NCBI GenBank assembly: GCA_023132875.1
Contig: JAGLXN010000008.1
Coordinates: forward strand, 1 to 53,752
Direction: 5' to 3'
Length of the DNA: 53,752 nucleotides
Source of the DNA: Candidatus Parcubacteria bacterium
GTDB lineage: Bacteria > Patescibacteriota > Minisyncoccia > JAHIHE01 > JAGLIN01
Below are positions 19,047-25,393 of the stretch, one piece after another (positions within the stretch are counted from its first letter, which is position 1; each line of letters begins with the position of its first letter). The notes under the pieces are model-generated. The model had not been told where the DNA came from. It searched no databases and was given only the letters and a program-made list of their open reading frames with translations. The translations under genes were made by a program, and so were the position numbers.

Positions 19047-19238
19047 TTATTTTTCTATTTTTATCGCCCCAACCGGACAACTATTTATTGCTATTTCACA
19101 ATCGCATTTTTTACTCTCGTCTTTATTTACAACATTAACTTTTCCATCATCTTGCAGTTCAAACGCGTCAGGACACAAATTAACACAAGCTCCGCACCCA
19201 ATACAGAGTTCTTGATCAACTTTAATTTTTTTTGCCAT
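19047..19238 (-). CDS. fdx: Monocluster ferredoxin
   Basis: CIGCGACVNLCP ... CPVGAI in 63 aa. Confidence 0.92.
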   Translation of the reverse strand: MAKKIKVDQELCIGCGACVNLCPDAFELQDDGKVNVVNKDESKKCDCEIAINSCPVGAIKIEK

Positions 19239-19246
19239 AATTTTTC

Positions 19247-19573
19247 TTAGTTATTTTTTATCAAGTTATTTATTTTCTCTATTAAAATTTCTTTTGGCTG
19301 AAGTCCTATCATTTCTTCAACAACTTCTCCTTTTTTAAACACTTTCAGCGTTGGGATGCTTAAAATTTCATATTCTCCTGCAATATTTGGATTTTCATCC
19401 ACATTAAGTTTTCTTATCTTTATTTTTCCATCAAATTCTTTGGAAAGTTCCTCAATAACAGGACTCATCATTTGGCACGGACCGCACCATGGAGCCCAAA
19501 AATCAACCAAAACAAGTATTTCGGACTTTCTTACTTCATCCTTAAAATTTTGGTCAGTTAGTTCAATATCCAT
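19247..19573 (-). CDS. trxA: Thioredoxin
   Basis: VDFWAPWCGPC and SIPTL; start at MDIEL (19573) preferred. Confidence 0.96.
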   Translation of the reverse strand: MDIELTDQNFKDEVRKSEILVLVDFWAPWCGPCQMMSPVIEELSKEFDGKIKIRKLNVDENPNIAGEYEILSIPTLKVFKKGEVVEEMIGLQPKEILIEKINNLIKNN

Positions 19574-19711
19574 AGGATATATACTCCTTTCTTTTTTGTT
19601 AAATCTTGGCATTTTCTTTTACTCTGCAGTTAAAAAAATAACCAGAATTACACTTTATTTCTTATTAATGTTATACTTACCTTGGACTACGAAATTCTAT
19701 TTTTAGTTATC

Positions 19712-19788
19712 TTCGTGTAAATATTAGTTTTATTAGTGTTTCTTATAATAAACGCTAATTGAACTAATATTCACGCTAAACAGACGAA
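19712..19788. repeat. TTCGTG..TATTAGT inverted-repeat element
   Basis: TTCGT/ACGAA ends and AATATTAGTT/AACTAATATT inner arms; relative at 14963. Confidence 0.65.
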
Positions 19789-19849
19789 TTATAAAAGTTT
19801 TGTAATTCAAAGTACTTATAATATTAATAATATAACAAAAACAAAAGAA

Positions 19850-20878
19850 ATGCAAACTAAAAATGTGATAATCATTGGCGCGGGTCCAGCCGGTCTTGCG
19901 ACTGCGATAGAATTAAAAAAAATAAGCCGATATAATATTATTATTCTCGAAAAAAACCCTGAAATAAGCTATAAAATATGTGCCGGCGGAATTGATCCTA
20001 ATGTTTCTGAAATTGGCATACCAGAAAAGATTATAGACAGAAAATTTAATAAAATAAAACTGTTTACAGCAAAACAATCAATAACAATCCAAGAAAACAA
20101 ATCAATAATCGCGACAACAAACAGAAAAACATTACATGAGATTATGGCAAATAGGGCGCGTAAAATGGGAATAAAGATATTATTTAACAAGCAGGTTAAA
20201 GAAATGGATGATAATTCGGTTATAACTTCTTTAGGTGAAACATTTAATTTTGATTATCTCGTTGGAGCAGATGGAAGCACTTCAACAGTAAGAAAAAAAA
20301 TAGGAATCAAAACTAAAAAAGTATTAATAGCCTTTCAATATATTATTCCGGGAGAATATTCTGATATTGAATTTTATATTGATTTTAAAAAATTTGGATT
20401 TTCATACGCTTGGATTTTTCCGCAAAAAAATGTAATTTCAGTTGGAACTGGCTATGATTCTAGTTTATCTAATAATAATTTTAAGATTAAAGAACTTCGT
20501 GAAAATTTTGACAGCTGGTGCAAAGAAAAATTCAATCTTGAAAATGCAAAATTTGAAGCATTTTCAATAAACTACGACTATCAAGGTTTTGAATTTGGAA
20601 ATATATTTCTCGCTGGAGACGCAGCAGGATTTGCTTCCGGCCTTACAGGAGAAGGAATAAAATTTGCTATCCTCTCCGGAAAAGATATTGCCAGAAAAAT
20701 AGTTAATTCAAATTATAGGTGCAAAGAAATTGAAAATATTTTGAAAATAAAAAAACGCGGAGAAAATTTCATCCGTTTTCTCTCGCTTAATAAAACTGTC
20801 GGAAAAATTACTGTTGAGCTTTTCGCATTTTTTATACAAACTCCGATTGGAAAAAAGATGTCTGAGAAGATGTTTTAA
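19850..20878 (+). CDS. Geranylgeranyl-reductase-family FAD-dependent oxidoreductase
   Basis: GAGPAG, ICAGGI, LVGADG, YAWIFP and LAGDAAGF..LTGEGI motifs. Confidence 0.85.
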   Translation: MQTKNVIIIGAGPAGLATAIELKKISRYNIIILEKNPEISYKICAGGIDPNVSEIGIPEKIIDRKFNKIKLFTAKQSITIQENKSIIATTNRKTLHEIMANRARKMGIKILFNKQVKEMDDNSVITSLGETFNFDYLVGADGSTSTVRKKIGIKTKKVLIAFQYIIPGEYSDIEFYIDFKKFGFSYAWIFPQKNVISVGTGYDSSLSNNNFKIKELRENFDSWCKEKFNLENAKFEAFSINYDYQGFEFGNIFLAGDAAGFASGLTGEGIKFAILSGKDIARKIVNSNYRCKEIENILKIKKRGENFIRFLSLNKTVGKITVELFAFFIQTPIGKKMSEKMF

Positions 20879-20991
20879 AAAAATCTTATTCGGCTCCCTT
20901 CAAACAATTTTACAGGCAAAGATAATCTCATTCAGCTGGAGTCTCTAATAAGGACTCCGGCAAGAAATACTATTTATTTATCTTTCTTTCG

Positions 20992-21022
20992 CGTCGGAGT
21001 CCTCTGCTGAGAGATTCCGACG
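20992..21022. terminator. Hairpin between convergent genes, possible bidirectional terminator
   Basis: CGTCGGAGTC..GATTCCGACG inverted repeat. Confidence 0.45.
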
Positions 21023-21053
21023 AGGCGAAATAACAATATAGCAATAAAATAAT

Positions 21054-21959
21054 TTATTCAAACAAATCAGTGCTTAAATACCTTTCTCCGTTATCTGGCA
21101 AAATTACTACTATCGTTTTGCCTTTTTTTAGTTCTCTTGCTTTTTGAAGAGCAATATACATAGCAGCACCAGAACTCATTCCAGCTAAAATCCCCTCCTT
21201 TTGAGCTAGCATTTTTGAAACAGTAAAAGTTTCCGGCACTTCCTCTTTTGATATTTTAATAATCTCGTCAAAAGCATTATTTTGAAAAAGGTCTGTTTGC
21301 TTAAGCTCTTCAGAATTTCTAAGTCCTTGAATACGCGCGCCTATCTCAGGCATAACTCCAATAACTTTAATCTTTGAATTATATTCTTTTAAACACTTTG
21401 AAACTCCAACTCCCGTGCCAGCAGTTCCTATGCCTATAACAACCATATCAACTTTACTTTTAGTCTGCTTTAGAATTTCTTTGCCTGTAATCTTATAATG
21501 AGCCATTACATTAGCTGGATTTCTAAATTGATCAAGATCCGCGTATTTTTTCGAGTTTTCAGTTAATATCTTTTTTTTTACTTCAGTCGCGCCGTCCGTA
21601 CCCTTTGCGCTTGAAGATAAAAATAATTCTGCTCCATACGCTTTGATTAATTTTCTACGCTCAATGCTTACCGATTCCGGAATAATGATTGTAATTCTAT
21701 ATCCTTTAACCGCGGCAACTATTGCCATAGCAATGCCAGTATTGCCAGAACTTGCCTCTATTATAACTTTGTCCTTGGTCAATTTGCCTGACTTCTCGGC
21801 AGCTTCAATCATATAAAGAGCCATTACACTTTTTATAGATCCTCCTATATTATATTCCTCTAGTTTTGCCAAAACCGTAGCATCGCATGGATTTGTAAGT
21901 TTGTTTATTTTTACTATCGGCGTATTGCCGATCAGACTTAAAACATTCTCATGAATCAT
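21054..21959 (-). CDS. cysK: Cysteine synthase family PLP enzyme
   Basis: IGNTPIV, AKLE..N.GGSIK, EASSGNTGI, GTAGT and GMSSGA motifs; CysK versus CysM not resolvable by eye. Confidence 0.85.
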   Translation of the reverse strand: MIHENVLSLIGNTPIVKINKLTNPCDATVLAKLEEYNIGGSIKSVMALYMIEAAEKSGKLTKDKVIIEASSGNTGIAMAIVAAVKGYRITIIIPESVSIERRKLIKAYGAELFLSSSAKGTDGATEVKKKILTENSKKYADLDQFRNPANVMAHYKITGKEILKQTKSKVDMVVIGIGTAGTGVGVSKCLKEYNSKIKVIGVMPEIGARIQGLRNSEELKQTDLFQNNAFDEIIKISKEEVPETFTVSKMLAQKEGILAGMSSGAAMYIALQKARELKKGKTIVVILPDNGERYLSTDLFE

Positions 21960-21994
21960 TTTTTCTGGTTAACTTTAATTATAATTAAACTTTA

Positions 21995-22029
21995 CAAACA
22001 AAAACCAACCTTCACGGGTTGATTTTTTT
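21995..22029 (-). terminator. Attenuator terminator of the cysK leader
   Basis: Minus strand AAUCAACC-CGUGAA-GGUUGGUU followed by UUUGUUUGU, about 36 nt before the cysK start. Confidence 0.8.
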
Positions 22030-22074
22030 ATCAATATATAAACAAAAAATTAAATACTTAAAAACCAACCTGAC

Positions 22075-22125
22075 CTACAACTCGCAACAGCAACAACAAA
22101 TCAATTGATTTTTAAATGTTTTCAT
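22075..22125 (-). CDS. Poly-cysteine leader peptide MKTFKNQLICCCCCEL (not in ORF track)
   Basis: ATG AAA ACA TTT AAA AAT CAA TTG ATT TGT TGT TGC TGT TGC GAG TTG TAG, between a promoter and the terminator preceding cysK. Confidence 0.85.
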   Translation of the reverse strand: MKTFKNQLICCCCCEL

Positions 22126-22158
22126 AGATAATCTAAGTTATATTCTTTTATTAATTCA

Positions 22159-22186
22159 ATTCTACCATATTAAAAACTTTTGTCAA
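22159..22186 (-). promoter_or_regulatory. Sigma70-type promoter of the cysK leader
   Basis: TTGACA-16 bp-TAGAAT with TG immediately upstream (extended -10). Confidence 0.75.
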
Positions 22187-22208
22187 ACATTTCCACCTTG
22201 CTTGACCG

Positions 22209-24041
22209 CTAAAACTTCACAACTTCGCCTTCTTTAATTTCTAAATTTTTGCCTTTGGACAAGTCTTTATAATTAGACCGATTCATTTTCTCTACACTAA
22301 CATTTTTTCGAATAGGATCACCTTTTATTATTGCATTAGACGACTTTTCGGAAACTTCCTTATTTTTTTGTATTTGAAAATTATTAGAAATAGAGAAAGA
22401 TTTTTCTTTTCTTTCATCAACATCTCGCCCGACAAAACTATTTTTGGAATCAGTTGCTTTAATTTCCTTTTTTTTTATTTGGTAAATTTTCTTTTCTTCT
22501 TCTTTTTTTTCAAAATCAACTTTATCAACTTTATTATTTTTTACTGATTCTGCCGCTTGCTTTCTAACCTCTGCGAGACAATTCTTGCAATAAGTTGATC
22601 TTCCCGGATCCGGCTTAAATGGAACTTTTATCTTTTCTCCACACATCTCGCATACCGCGTCCCACATTTCTTTTTCTTCCATTTCATTTATATTATTTTT
22701 TGATCCTATTTCTTTAGACTCTTTACTTTTTTTGTTATTATTATTTTCTATTTTTTTATCTTCATTATCCATTCCTGACCACCTTGAAATTTTTTCTTCT
22801 ACAACTTCCCTTTTATTTGCATATCTTTCTCTTGAGACTTTTATTATTTTTTCTACATTGCTTTGTTCTGTCACTCCTAACGGTGGCAAAGTCGTTGCAC
22901 TAAAAGCATCTCCAGTAACTCCATCTATCATTAGCTTTAAATATATGTCGTACTTTGTAAGATTAACTAAATCGTTCATCATAAACACAGGCTCAAATTC
23001 TTTTTCCAAAAACTCAGCATCCGCGGCTCCTACTCTAAATGTAACAATAGTCCCAACATTTCCAAATATAGCATCGCGAACTTCTTCTTCAAGCTGTCCA
23101 ATATATTGATGAGCAACGATCAAATTCAATTTATATTTTCTTGCTTCCGAAAGAATACCTGCAAATGATTCTGTGGCAAAATTTTGAAATTCGTCAACAT
23201 AAAGATAAAAATCTTTTCGTTCTTCTTCTGGAATATCAGATCTACCCATGGCTGCCAGCTGAACTTTAGTAATAAGCATTGCCCCTAAAAGAGCGCTGTA
23301 ATCTTCGCCGATTTTTCCTTTAGCCAAATTTATGATAAGTATTTTTTTATTATCCATTATTTCCCTCATATCAATAGTAGAATGAGTTTGAGAAATAATA
23401 TTTCTAACAAGAGAACTGGAGAGAAACTGTCCAACCTTATTTTGAATTGGAGAAATGGCATCAACTGTAAACTGGCTTGAGTATTTTGTAAATTCATTAA
23501 GCCAGAAAGCTTTTACAACAGGATCAGAAACCTTATTTACCACCTTTTTTCTATAATCTTTATCAATGAACATTCTCGGCACTCCCAAAAGAGTGCTTCC
23601 GGGATATTCCAGAAGAGCTAAAATCACATTTCTAAGCAAATATTCTAATCGCGGTCCCCATGAATCAGCCCATATTTTTTTAAATACTCCAATCAATCCA
23701 GAAGCAACCAAATGCCTATATTTTGGATTAACATGCTCCATAACATTAAAAGCAATCGGATAGTCTGCGTCTGCCGGATTAAAATAGATAACATCATTGA
23801 TCCTTGATGCCGGAATAAAATTTAATATTTTTTCAGCCAAATCTCCATGAGGGTCAACAACAGCAACTCCGTTTCCAGCTCTGATATCAGAAATTATCAT
23901 AGTTTCCAAAAGATTTGTCTTTCCCATTCCAGTTTTTCCGATTACATAAACATGCCTTCTACGATCATCTTTCTTTACGCCAAAAACATACTCCTTTTCC
24001 CTGAAGTTAGTTTTCGCAAAATATGTAATATTTTCTGTCAT
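22209..24041 (-). CDS. VirD4/TraD/HerA-like P-loop ATPase with a C-terminal CxxC-x17-CxxC zinc ribbon
   Basis: Walker A GKTGMGKT, VVDPHGDL, Walker B LYVDEFQNF, SEARKY and AHQY; CEMC..VPFKP..YCKNC domain. Confidence 0.85.
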   Translation of the reverse strand: MTENITYFAKTNFREKEYVFGVKKDDRRRHVYVIGKTGMGKTNLLETMIISDIRAGNGVAVVDPHGDLAEKILNFIPASRINDVIYFNPADADYPIAFNVMEHVNPKYRHLVASGLIGVFKKIWADSWGPRLEYLLRNVILALLEYPGSTLLGVPRMFIDKDYRKKVVNKVSDPVVKAFWLNEFTKYSSQFTVDAISPIQNKVGQFLSSSLVRNIISQTHSTIDMREIMDNKKILIINLAKGKIGEDYSALLGAMLITKVQLAAMGRSDIPEEERKDFYLYVDEFQNFATESFAGILSEARKYKLNLIVAHQYIGQLEEEVRDAIFGNVGTIVTFRVGAADAEFLEKEFEPVFMMNDLVNLTKYDIYLKLMIDGVTGDAFSATTLPPLGVTEQSNVEKIIKVSRERYANKREVVEEKISRWSGMDNEDKKIENNNNKKSKESKEIGSKNNINEMEEKEMWDAVCEMCGEKIKVPFKPDPGRSTYCKNCLAEVRKQAAESVKNNKVDKVDFEKKEEEKKIYQIKKKEIKATDSKNSFVGRDVDERKEKSFSISNNFQIQKNKEVSEKSSNAIIKGDPIRKNVSVEKMNRSNYKDLSKGKNLEIKEGEVVKF

Positions 24042-24100
24042 AACATTAGTATTTAGTATTTAGTATTTAGTATTCCAGCTATATACTGCATACTAAATAC

Positions 24101-25393
24101 TCATATTGGTAATTCCGCAGGCGGCTTGCCTTTCTTAGCTTCAACCCTAGGAGCTACAGGAGCCTTAACTTCAATGGTTGGAAAGTGAAACAATGTTGCT
24201 AATTCTTCTGTATTTAAAACATAGCTTCTTTGATCAAATTCTCTTTTTTTATATCTTCTAAGAATTTTTCTCTTTTTCAAAGCTTTCCTGTATTCAGTAA
24301 GAAAATAATAGGCGCTTGTTTTAGTTTTTCCATCGGGAGCAAAACTATTTAAATCTTGAGAACCAAATTGAGAAAAATAGGAAAACGCTATGGCATTCCC
24401 TTTTGTTTTGTCAAAAATATCTCTCTTTGATAAATAAATCCAACGAATATCTGTTTCAAATCCCGGTCTTCTTGTATTGTTTTCTATAGCGGTAACTACG
24501 TCCTTTTCTCCCGGAGAAAGATGAAGCATCATGCTTATTTCTTCTTTTTTTTCTTTTTTATCTTCCTTTTCTATTAAACTCTGCGGTGAAAAAAAACCAA
24601 GAATCGTATACCTTCCAAGATCAACTATTTCACTTACAATAAGCGAAAAAAATCCTTCTCCTTTTTTATTTTTGTTATCTTTTCTCCCAATAAGCTTAAG
24701 CACTAAAGAATCAGCTTCCTTTTTCCAATCATCACCAACTGCTCTAATGAGAATTTGAATCCAAAGTTGCTCTCCTTTCTGCAATTTACTGACCCCTTCA
24801 ACAATATTTGAAATCGGATCAACAAATTCTCCTGACGCTGGATCTTCAAACTCTTTATAGATTCTCAGCGGATAAGCATCTTCTTTGTTTAATTTCATAT
24901 CAGCTCCCCACAATTCATAATCTTTACTCGGTATATCATCAGGAACATCAGTTACATAATCCTCAACTTCTTTTATCTCAGCTTCCGGATATTGCGCATA
25001 TATCTGAGATTCTACCATCTCTAAGGATTTAACCGGGGTTCTAATATAAAAATGAATATCACCTTCTATGCTTACAATTTCCAAGCTAAACCATATATCC
25101 ACAATACCTTCTAAATAAACATCATATAAAGTATCTATTATAACATCAAAGGTGCTGTATATGGCCGAAAAAAACTCTTCCATTGTTTTTGGCCTCTTTT
25201 CTATTTCTTTAGGAATTTTTACTTCTAATAATTTCCATTTGATATTCCTTATATGTTTTTCCTGCACATAACTAATCCATGCAAGTTCAAAAATAGGCCA
25301 CAAAACCAGTGGCGTAAAAAACCACCACCACTCACGATAAAAAATAAGAGCTTCCTTAAGCGATTCTGCTATTACAAAAGAAGATGTTAGCAT
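24101..25393 (-). CDS. Membrane-anchored partner protein of the ATPase
   Basis: N-terminal TM segment; FSLEIVS, QIYAQYPEAEI and ELATLFHFP pattern typical of proteins preceding such ATPases in CPR genomes (recalled, not searched). Confidence 0.7.
   Translation of the reverse strand: MLTSSFVIAESLKEALIFYREWWWFFTPLVLWPIFELAWISYVQEKHIRNIKWKLLEVKIPKEIEKRPKTMEEFFSAIYSTFDVIIDTLYDVYLEGIVDIWFSLEIVSIEGDIHFYIRTPVKSLEMVESQIYAQYPEAEIKEVEDYVTDVPDDIPSKDYELWGADMKLNKEDAYPLRIYKEFEDPASGEFVDPISNIVEGVSKLQKGEQLWIQILIRAVGDDWKKEADSLVLKLIGRKDNKNKKGEGFFSLIVSEIVDLGRYTILGFFSPQSLIEKEDKKEKKEEISMMLHLSPGEKDVVTAIENNTRRPGFETDIRWIYLSKRDIFDKTKGNAIAFSYFSQFGSQDLNSFAPDGKTKTSAYYFLTEYRKALKKRKILRRYKKREFDQRSYVLNTEELATLFHFPTIEVKAPVAPRVEAKKGKPPAELPI

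Follow-up and report, generated by a model that had tools for sequence, protein, structure and literature searches.

A conserved cysteine-codon leader, a candidate transcription attenuator, upstream of a cysK-like gene in candidate phyla radiation bacteria

Introduction

The classical attenuators of E. coli and Salmonella (trpL, hisL, pheL, leuL, thrL, and ilvL) share a promoter-proximal short open reading frame (ORF) enriched in codons for the pathway's end product, four segments that form three alternative helices known as 1:2, 2:3, and 3:4, regulatory codons at or next to segment 1, a stop codon just before or inside segment 2, and, ahead of the first structural gene, an intrinsic terminator that ends in a U-run. 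Cysteine is nearly absent among the amino acids of classical attenuation, and the known Cys leaders are translational or have been predicted for cysS only. Here, we describe a Cys-codon leader of identical predicted logic upstream of a cysK-like gene, on the minus strand of a 53,752-nt stretch of DNA (the window; contig JAGLXN010000008.1, positions 1 to 53,752, assembly GCA_023132875.1) from Candidatus Parcubacteria bacterium, which belongs to the candidate phyla radiation (CPR, Patescibacteria). It differs from the classical attenuators in its amino acid, in a CPR host without Shine-Dalgarno (SD) sequences, in the lack of sequence similarity and of a match to any Rfam leader family, in an exact 12-nt repeat shared by segments 2 and 4, and in a subgroup of relatives that would translate through segment 2.

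Two of the closest described systems lie upstream of cysS, the Cys-tRNA synthetase gene. In Rhodobacterales, the predicted leader uORFC-8-2 combines Cys codons and an intrinsic terminator (Brewer et al. 2021, PMC8632094), and in Deinococcus deserti a leaderless two-Cys peptide is predicted to act as a ribosome-mediated attenuator (PMC4007540). Both have tandem Cys codons, as found here, both are predictions only, and uORFC-8-2 also has a terminator stem and a U-run. They precede a Cys-tRNA synthetase gene, carry two Cys codons, and belong to other phyla, whereas the leader described here precedes a biosynthetic gene, carries 3-5 Cys codons, and is unrelated in sequence. Compared by its published description, uORFC-8-2 is further set apart by two Cys near positions 14-15 and a two-stem consensus, against Cys at positions 9-14 here, and that description reports no covarying antiterminator (PMC8632094).

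Other Cys leaders act in a different manner. The polycysteine small ORFs (sORFs) of mycobacteria are leaderless, unmask an SD sequence, and were shown not to work through transcription termination (Canestrari et al. 2020, 10.1101/834739); the same study states that attenuation by an upstream ORF (uORF) for cysteine was previously undescribed. The Cys leader peptides of actinobacteria have no terminators (Seliverstov 2005, PMC1262725). What these leaders have in common with the present one is an upstream short ORF with a run of Cys codons before a cysteine-metabolism gene and sensing of Cys-tRNA by stalling, which in our case is putative. In contrast to the mycobacterial sORFs, the element studied here has a 5′ untranslated region (UTR) of roughly 25 nt, no SD sequence, a terminator/antiterminator pair, and no complement of the Cys tract at the cysK start. 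The Cys T-boxes of Firmicutes also sense tRNA-Cys charging and place a terminator/antiterminator switch before cysteine genes, but they bind the tRNA directly and need no ORF, and no T-box match was found here.

Results

The leader is preceded by a promoter that agrees with 11 of 12 consensus positions (Table 1); in a 4-kb scan (20500-24500), it was the top promoter-like site and the sole one that good. The -10 element ends 33 nt ahead of the leader ATG, and the whole element is compact, at about 130 nt. Cysteine makes up 31% of the leader peptide, compared with 0.98% of the residues in the 41 long ORFs of the window. A run of at least five Cys codons never occurred in 300 Markov shuffles of the window, runs of at least four appeared at 0.04 per shuffle, and the window itself has no second run of at least four. 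The nucleotides GUCA separate the leader stop from GGUUGGUUUUU (22070-22060), so that segment 2 begins 4 nt past the stop, 13 nt past the last Cys codon, and 25 nt past the first.

Table 1. Coordinates of the leader elements and of the downstream gene in the window
Feature	Coordinates	Strand	Basis or detail
-35 hexamer TTGACA	22186-22181	(-)	direct reading and promoter scan
Extended -10, TGgTAGAAT	22159..22167	(-)	TAGAAT 22164-22159, TG 22167-22166; 16-nt spacer to -35
Leader ORF MKTFKNQLICCCCCEL, 16 codons + TAG	22075..22125	(-)	ATG at 22125, TAG 22077-22075
Five consecutive Cys codons UGU UGU UGC UGU UGC, proposed sensor	22084..22098	(-)	direct reading
Segment 1 ACAUUUAAAAAUCAAUUGAUUUG, within the ORF, pairs with segment 2	22097..22117	(-)	fold and 9-nt repeat; just 5′ of the Cys codons
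Segment 2 UAGGUCAGGUUGGUUUUUAAGU, core AGGUUGGUUUUU at 22071-22060	22056..22077	(-)	alternative partners, segment 1 or segment 3
Segment 3 AAAAAUCAACC, terminator 5′ arm and antiterminator 3′ strand	22017..22027	(-)	repeats, folds, covariation
Segment 4 GGUUGGUUUUU + U-run UUUUUGUUU, terminator 3′ arm and release site	21996..22010	(-)	terminator scan, fold
Terminator hairpin		(-)	AAAAAUCAACC (22027-22017), loop CGUGAA (22016-22011), GGUUGGUUUUU (22010-22000), then GUUUG
Exact 12-nt direct repeat	22000-22011 and 22060-22071	(-)
Exact 9-nt direct repeat AAAAAUCAA	22113-22105 and 22027-22019	(-)	in the ORF (codons Lys5-Asn6-Gln7) and in the terminator 5′ arm
Presumed regulated gene, CysK/CysM-family pyridoxal phosphate (PLP) enzyme, 301 aa	21054..21959	(-)	TIGR01136, PF00291, PDB matches

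An initial annotation of this sequence had proposed the promoter TTGACA-16-TAGAAT, the 16-codon ORF with its five Cys codons, the segment placed 4 nt past the stop and 13 nt past the last Cys codon, the terminator with its CGUGAA loop, and the 12-bp direct repeat. All of these are present where it had placed them, and the promoter has in addition the TG of an extended -10. The 12-nt repeat is unique, as no further copy exists in the window even with one mismatch, nor any other 12-mer resembling segment 2. The built-in terminator scan reported a hairpin on the plus strand only and missed the minus-strand hairpin because its greedy stem extension absorbs the U-run; our own scan recovered this hairpin and its tail, at -11.2 kcal/mol. 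The terminator and antiterminator described in the annotation are supported, but it had counted three segments, and we find four: the second direct repeat, AAAAAUCAA, implies a 1:2 hairpin whose additional segment lies in the leader ORF and which would sequester segment 2 in an untranslated leader. Two small plus-strand ORFs (21951-22022 and 22019-22108) were set aside as antisense artefacts of AT-rich and Cys-codon sequence.

In the minimum-energy fold of the leader, 22117-22097 pairs with 22077-22056 over 21 bp with one bulge, placing the Cys codons at the top and the stop codon in the 3′ strand, and the 3:4 terminator forms alongside (z = -3.3; none of 200 shuffles folded as well). The hairpin energies in the window are -19.2 kcal/mol for 1:2, -10.2 kcal/mol for 2:3 (11 bp), and -11.2 kcal/mol for 3:4. 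As segments 2 and 4 carry the exact 12-nt repeat, the antiterminator and terminator helices are identical in this copy. The predicted helices thus give the element the full trp/his-type layout, with 1:2 as anti-antiterminator, 2:3 as antiterminator, and 3:4 as terminator.

A scan of species-representative genomes with the CysK protein returned 33 loci. Of the twelve closest (52-90% identity), eleven were CPR/Patescibacteria metagenome-assembled genomes (MAGs), labelled Paceibacterota, Moraniibacteriota, Parcubacteria, or similar, and all eleven had a short Cys-rich ORF upstream of cysK (in L006, read by eye). A metagenome scan with a CysK profile gave mostly distant non-CPR genes, which served as a negative control, and one new leader (L034), while a protein search and ten contigs added eight more (L114, L116, L118, L119, L123, L124, L125, and L126). 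Altogether, a homologous Cys-rich leader was found in 21 of the 24 informative CPR-type cysK loci (52-100% protein identity; L120 was too short to judge), that is, in the window and in 20 other CPR loci of the Paceibacteria type, the initial annotation having proposed a search for poly-Cys leaders upstream of cysK orthologues. All share one design: a promoter, a Cys-rich ORF of 13-43 codons, segment 2, and a hairpin with a U-run, upstream of an orthologous cysK-like gene. No such leader was present at approximately 100 non-CPR cysK loci (≤54% identity), where the two short ORFs that did turn up are unrelated. Short ATG-initiated ORFs with at least three Cys codons in a row number 16 in 233 kb of CPR loci, counted on both strands, and 14 of them are this leader.

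The leader peptides read MKIFKNQLVCCCCCKL (L001), MFKNQLICLCCCSL (L002), MKTFKDQAVCCCCTL (L003), MFKNQSICCCCCGL (L004), MFKSQSICCCCSL (L005), MKTFQNQFCLCYRL (L006), MKTFQNQSCLCCRL (L007), MKSIKSQLKCCYCKIRKIRLAFNCCRC (L008), MTKLRNQMTGCCCKTCGSRLVFRCC... (L009), MNKKHKNQIICCCRCLSGLVFGVCLSLY (L010), and MNYQISQNYQNCCCNFF (L012), with MKIFKNLMMCCCKNI as a further example among the CPR loci. A TTGACA, TTGACG, or TTGCAA -35 hexamer with a 16-17 nt spacer to a -10 element stands ahead of the leader in the 11 loci that were read by eye. Spacing is conserved as well: for the 20 leaders with an automatic measurement (L126 having been aligned by eye), the distance from the first Cys nucleotide to the start of segment 2 is 19-27 nt, and the stop codon ends -2 to +6 nt from segment 2 in 15 of the 21.

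Cysteine accounts for 22.6% of residues across the 21 leaders, compared with 0.98% in window proteins. Its positions carry TGT or TGC (66 vs 24) and never TGA or TGG, and the ATG, the reading frame, and a stop are kept in every leader, with TAA, TAG, and TGA all in use. The leader ORF is thus read here as a series of codons that is presumably translated. Segment 1 encodes the conserved non-Cys residues (FKNQ), which co-vary with segment 2, so that the conservation of the peptide can be attributed to RNA pairing.

The 21 leaders were aligned by sequence alone with MAFFT, and pairs were counted for each helix. The 2:3 antiterminator had 89.7% of its cells paired and double changes at 8 of 13 pairs (17 cells), which none of 500 shuffles reached, and slid registers gave 24-55%. 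For the 1:2 helix, 84.7% of cells were paired, with double changes at 7 of 14 pairs (slid registers, 32-59%), and for the 3:4 terminator 75.8%, with double changes at 4 of 11 pairs, a figure that is lower because loop lengths shift the register. Unconstrained RNAalifold on the same alignment returned the 2:3 helix as its consensus, 8 of the 10 pairs being compensatory. An automated duplex search paired the segment after the Cys codons with the terminator 5′ arm in 18 of 21 leaders, at -12 to -19 kcal/mol, each duplex beating at least 96% of random windows from the same locus; by eye, L125 and L126 also pair well, and L010 is marginal and L118 ambiguous. Pairing is kept while the sequence changes, as in GGUUGGUUUUU / AAAAAUCAACC, CAGAUUGGUUUU / AAAACCAGUCUG, CAGGCUGG / CCCGCCUG, GGCUGGCUUUU / AAAGAGCCAACC, and GCAAGUUGG / CCAACUUGC, and it is retained in L012 with a wholly different sequence (GAAGAGGCU / AGUCUCUUC). 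The 1:2 helix is weak in L006, L008-L010, and L012. In the interval from the ORF to cysK, the automated scan detected a hairpin and an adjoining U-run in 20 of 21 leaders, and in L126 they were read by eye. The hairpins picked automatically in L118 and L125 differ from the homologous ones, and the L126 stem and the homologous stem of L125, both read by eye, have only 4 bp.

The initial annotation had also proposed folding the leader with ribosome-masked regions. Segment 1 was removed to mimic a ribosome stalled on the Cys codons, and transcripts were folded through the U-run. Under this mask, 2:3 was the minimum-energy fold of 17 of the 21 leaders, mostly with a margin of 3-9 kcal/mol relative to the terminator-only state; the window copy itself did not switch and stayed in the terminator state. 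Before segment 4 exists, 9-14 of the 2:3 pairs form in all 21 leaders. Unmasked and at full length, 12 leaders fold as 1:2 plus 3:4 and 8 as 2:3, so that, in these folding models, the system is bistable, as expected for a switch.

Discussion

By sequence comparison, the element is a real, conserved, and previously undescribed member of a textbook attenuator class, and its function is a prediction. We give a probability of about 0.82 to the reading that it is a classical ribosome-mediated transcription attenuator that would sense charged tRNA-Cys and control a monocistronic gene for a cysK-like cysteine synthase. The analysis shows the sequence elements, pairings that exclude one another, how these are conserved and covary, and how they are spaced; where transcription begins, that the ORF is translated, that ribosomes stall, how far a footprint reaches, and that transcription does terminate are inferred. 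The start site would lie near 22152, some 7 nt past the -10 element. In a transcript without a ribosome, or once the ribosome has gone, segment 1 (codons 3-10) would pair with segment 2 (the stop codon plus 19 nt), the 3:4 terminator would form, and polymerase would be released at the U-run, at about 22000-21996, which leaves some 37 nt to the cysK ATG. If Cys-tRNA is plentiful, the ribosome would reach the UAG, and its footprint, extending about 12-15 nt past the stop, would mask the GGUUGG of segment 2, again allowing 3:4 to form and transcription to terminate. Counted from the first P-site nucleotide, a ribosome covers roughly positions -15 to +14; with the UAG in the A site, it would reach to about 22066, that is, over the GGUUG of segment 2. 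When Cys-tRNA is scarce, a ribosome would stall with one of the Cys codons at 22098-22084 in its A site, covering all or part of segment 1 and leaving GGUUGGUUUUU free. The freed segment 2 could then pair with segment 3 once this emerges, blocking the terminator so that cysK would be transcribed. That a ribosome stalled on Cys frees the antiterminator segment and one at the stop codon covers it had been part of the initial annotation, and conservation, covariation, and the spacing from stop to segment 2 speak for it. More speculatively, the 1:2 hairpin, whose arms and U-run nearly duplicate those of the terminator, may itself pause or stop polymerase until a ribosome opens it.

Several observations weigh against this reading. 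With segment 2 free, the terminator state of the window copy is 1.6 kcal/mol better than the antiterminator state (-12.6 vs -11.0), because segments 2 and 4 are identical, and the antiterminator would therefore have to win there by forming first; in equilibrium folding of this copy with ribosome masks, the terminator is always the minimum-energy state, and thermodynamics alone does not separate the two, whereas the analysis across the family does. In the E. coli trp attenuator, the terminator state is likewise the more stable, and the antiterminator must form first. L006 retains only two, non-adjacent Cys codons. In L008, L009, L010, L123, L124, and L125, the ORF reads through segment 2 (as RLVF, RLAF, GLVF, GWFW, or SWFL), and four of these six have Cys-Cys just past it, where a stalled ribosome would mask segment 2. 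The terminator stems of several relatives are weak, with 4-5 G/C-containing pairs and about -4 kcal/mol, and L118 has a rebuilt terminator with the homologue of segment 3 in its loop, where the 2:3 pairing falls short of significance (p = 0.52). The leader ORF has no SD sequence, though 39 of 41 window genes likewise lack one; this is normal here, since the genome hardly uses SD sequences, with an SD-like motif within 20 nt of the start in 2 of 41 window genes, cysK not among them. Lastly, the host organisms are uncultured, and the switch would presuppose a coupling of transcription to translation that is putative in CPR bacteria.

An action of the leader on translation or on mRNA stability, in which stalling exposes the cysK start region as in the mycobacterial poly-Cys sORFs, is improbable. 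The only experimentally studied Cys leaders do work in this way (10.1101/834739), and the weak terminator stems of several relatives would suit it, but a hairpin with an adjoining U-run is present in nearly every leader (20 of 21 by the scan, L126 by eye), and the covarying alternative helix competes with that hairpin and not with the cysK start. The genome also uses no SD sequence that could be occluded, the switch lies 150-300 nt from cysK in L001, L002, L008, and L123, and no complement to the Cys tract was seen around the cysK ATG when the sequence was read directly.

Slightly less probable again is that the ORF encodes a functional Cys-rich micropeptide, either metal or redox binding or the precursor of a modified peptide, with its own terminator, and that cysK is expressed independently. 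The conserved peptide (xFKNQxxCCCC) could be taken in its favor, as could a TATAAT at 21983-21978, between the terminator and cysK. We rejected this hexamer as an internal cysK promoter: it is accompanied by neither a -35 hexamer nor a TG, the scan did not select it, and it is unconserved in the relatives. The non-Cys residues change together with segment 2, as where KNQL becomes KDQA and GGUUGG becomes GGCUGG, while peptide length, the C-terminus, and the number of Cys (2 to 6) all vary, and a free-standing peptide gene needs no covarying segment complementary to the 5′ arm of its own terminator.

A switch that binds a ligand, a tRNA, or a protein, similar to a T-box or a riboswitch and with an incidental ORF, is a shade more remote still. 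Cys-specific T-boxes are known to control cysteine genes in Firmicutes (PMC2566862), which lends the idea some appeal, but Rfam gave nothing relevant for 21500-22700 (E up to 10) or for 8 relatives (at the gathering score), including no match to the T-box family RF00230. The start codon, frame, and stop kept in 21 of 21 leaders, with synonymous Cys codon changes, argue against an incidental ORF, and RNAalifold yielded no conserved structured aptamer beyond three simple helices. A match to STnc370 in Rfam, scoring 26 bits where the cutoff is 54, is noise. That the arrangement arose by chance in AT-rich intergenic DNA is hardly credible: A/U runs do pair easily at 33% GC and a 12-mer with at most one mismatch occurred twice in 28 of 100 shuffles, but the conservation over 21 loci, the covariation, and the absence of a 5-Cys run from the shuffles refute it.

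With a classical attenuator as the favored reading, the amino acid, the biosynthetic target gene, and the host lineage are notable, and the mechanism is not new. Full-text literature searches on leader peptides or attenuators in Patescibacteria or the 'candidate phyla radiation' returned nothing relevant. The novelty that the initial annotation had implied has to be narrowed because Cys-specific leader attenuators had already been predicted for cysS in Rhodobacterales and Deinococcus. That this is the first CPR-specific amino-acid-responsive cis-regulatory RNA family and also the first classical attenuator with terminator and antiterminator to act on a gene of cysteine biosynthesis is a tentative claim, and we consider it rather unlikely to hold in full. 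CPR bacteria form a large and almost wholly uncultured group whose gene regulation is essentially unknown, and a conserved attenuator would show that ribosome-coupled RNA switches exist there. The switch is also a clue to function, as it suggests that the divergent cysK-like gene supplies cysteine and would be induced when Cys-tRNA is short. If the switch works as read, bacteria with reduced genomes that are supposed to be auxotrophic would make their own cysteine on demand and would couple transcription to translation without SD sequences, and tRNA-Cys may come under its control too in some lineages (L012). The compact element is accessible to heterologous or cell-free systems.

The product of the downstream gene matches TIGR01136 (cysKM) with 319 bits, just below the cutoff of 344, and PF00291, and its best PDB matches are cysteine synthases (E = 1e-67). 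In the CPR CysK clade, the motif GGSIKSVMA (window residues 39-47) stands where cysteine synthases have SVKDR after the PLP-binding lysine, so that Asp-Arg is replaced by Ser-Val; 10 CPR sequences all retain G39, G40, S41, K43, and A47. The next gene (19850-20878), on the plus strand, converges on cysK, which is therefore monocistronic. Upstream, the gene at 24041-22209 encodes a coupling ATPase similar to TraD/VirD4, whose tail is K/E-rich and which has a C-terminal CxxC-x17-CxxC zinc finger; this gene ends 22 nt before the -35 hexamer.

Three CPR-type loci have no leader, namely, L011 (labelled 'archaeon', the twelfth of the twelve closest loci), L121, and L122, in the last of which a promoter lies directly upstream of cysK. 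In L121 (1109-3915; 65-66% identity, CPR clade), the leaderless cysK is part of an operon of Rrf2-type regulator, cysK, class-V aminotransferase (IscS-like), and NifU genes, and in this clade a protein regulator appears to replace the RNA switch. A different 'archaeon' MAG, L016, with a cysK homologue of 48% identity, has the ORF MTAKVCCC, complete with stop, about 90 nt upstream of cysK (2882-2960), followed by CCAGGCUGUCUUCUGG and a U-run; it may be an independent Cys leader, but its fold is no better than shuffles (z = -0.56).

Past the TAG, the frame of the window ORF would read VRLVFKYLIFCLYIDKKINP up to a stop in the terminator loop (22074-22017), a stretch that includes VRLVF. This is the RLVF frame that six relatives would translate, which suggests that the short window ORF derives from a longer ancestral one. 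Inserts of 150-300 nt separate the terminator from cysK in L001 (2730-2980), L002 (2810-2980), L008 (2840-2970), and L123 (1230-1480); ends such as TGTCATTTCGAA.../...GATGACA, or short tandem motifs, recur among several of them, and the inserts look like miniature mobile elements or repeats that landed inside the leader. In L012 (440-768), the leader and terminator (440-566) are separated from cysK (768) by a tRNA-Cys(GCA) gene (646-718). Only one -10-like hexamer precedes this gene, with its end 2 nt away from the 5′ end of the tRNA, so that this tRNA-Cys may be co-transcribed under the attenuator.

The remaining observations concern the surroundings of the element. The stretch past the U-run (21961-21999, GUUUGUAAA-UUUAAUUA...) is similar in the window, L001, L004, L006, L007, L116, and L118 and may be part of the release site or of the translation start region of cysK. 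Window gene starts are preceded by A/T-rich sequence, often ...AAATTATG. Synteny is conserved on both sides of the leader and cysK (22209-24041 and 19047-20878 in the window), with the TraD/VirD4-like ATPase upstream in the window and in L114, L124, L125, and L126, and beyond cysK lie genes for a thioredoxin, a 4Fe-4S ferredoxin, and a protein similar to flavin adenine dinucleotide (FAD) reductases.

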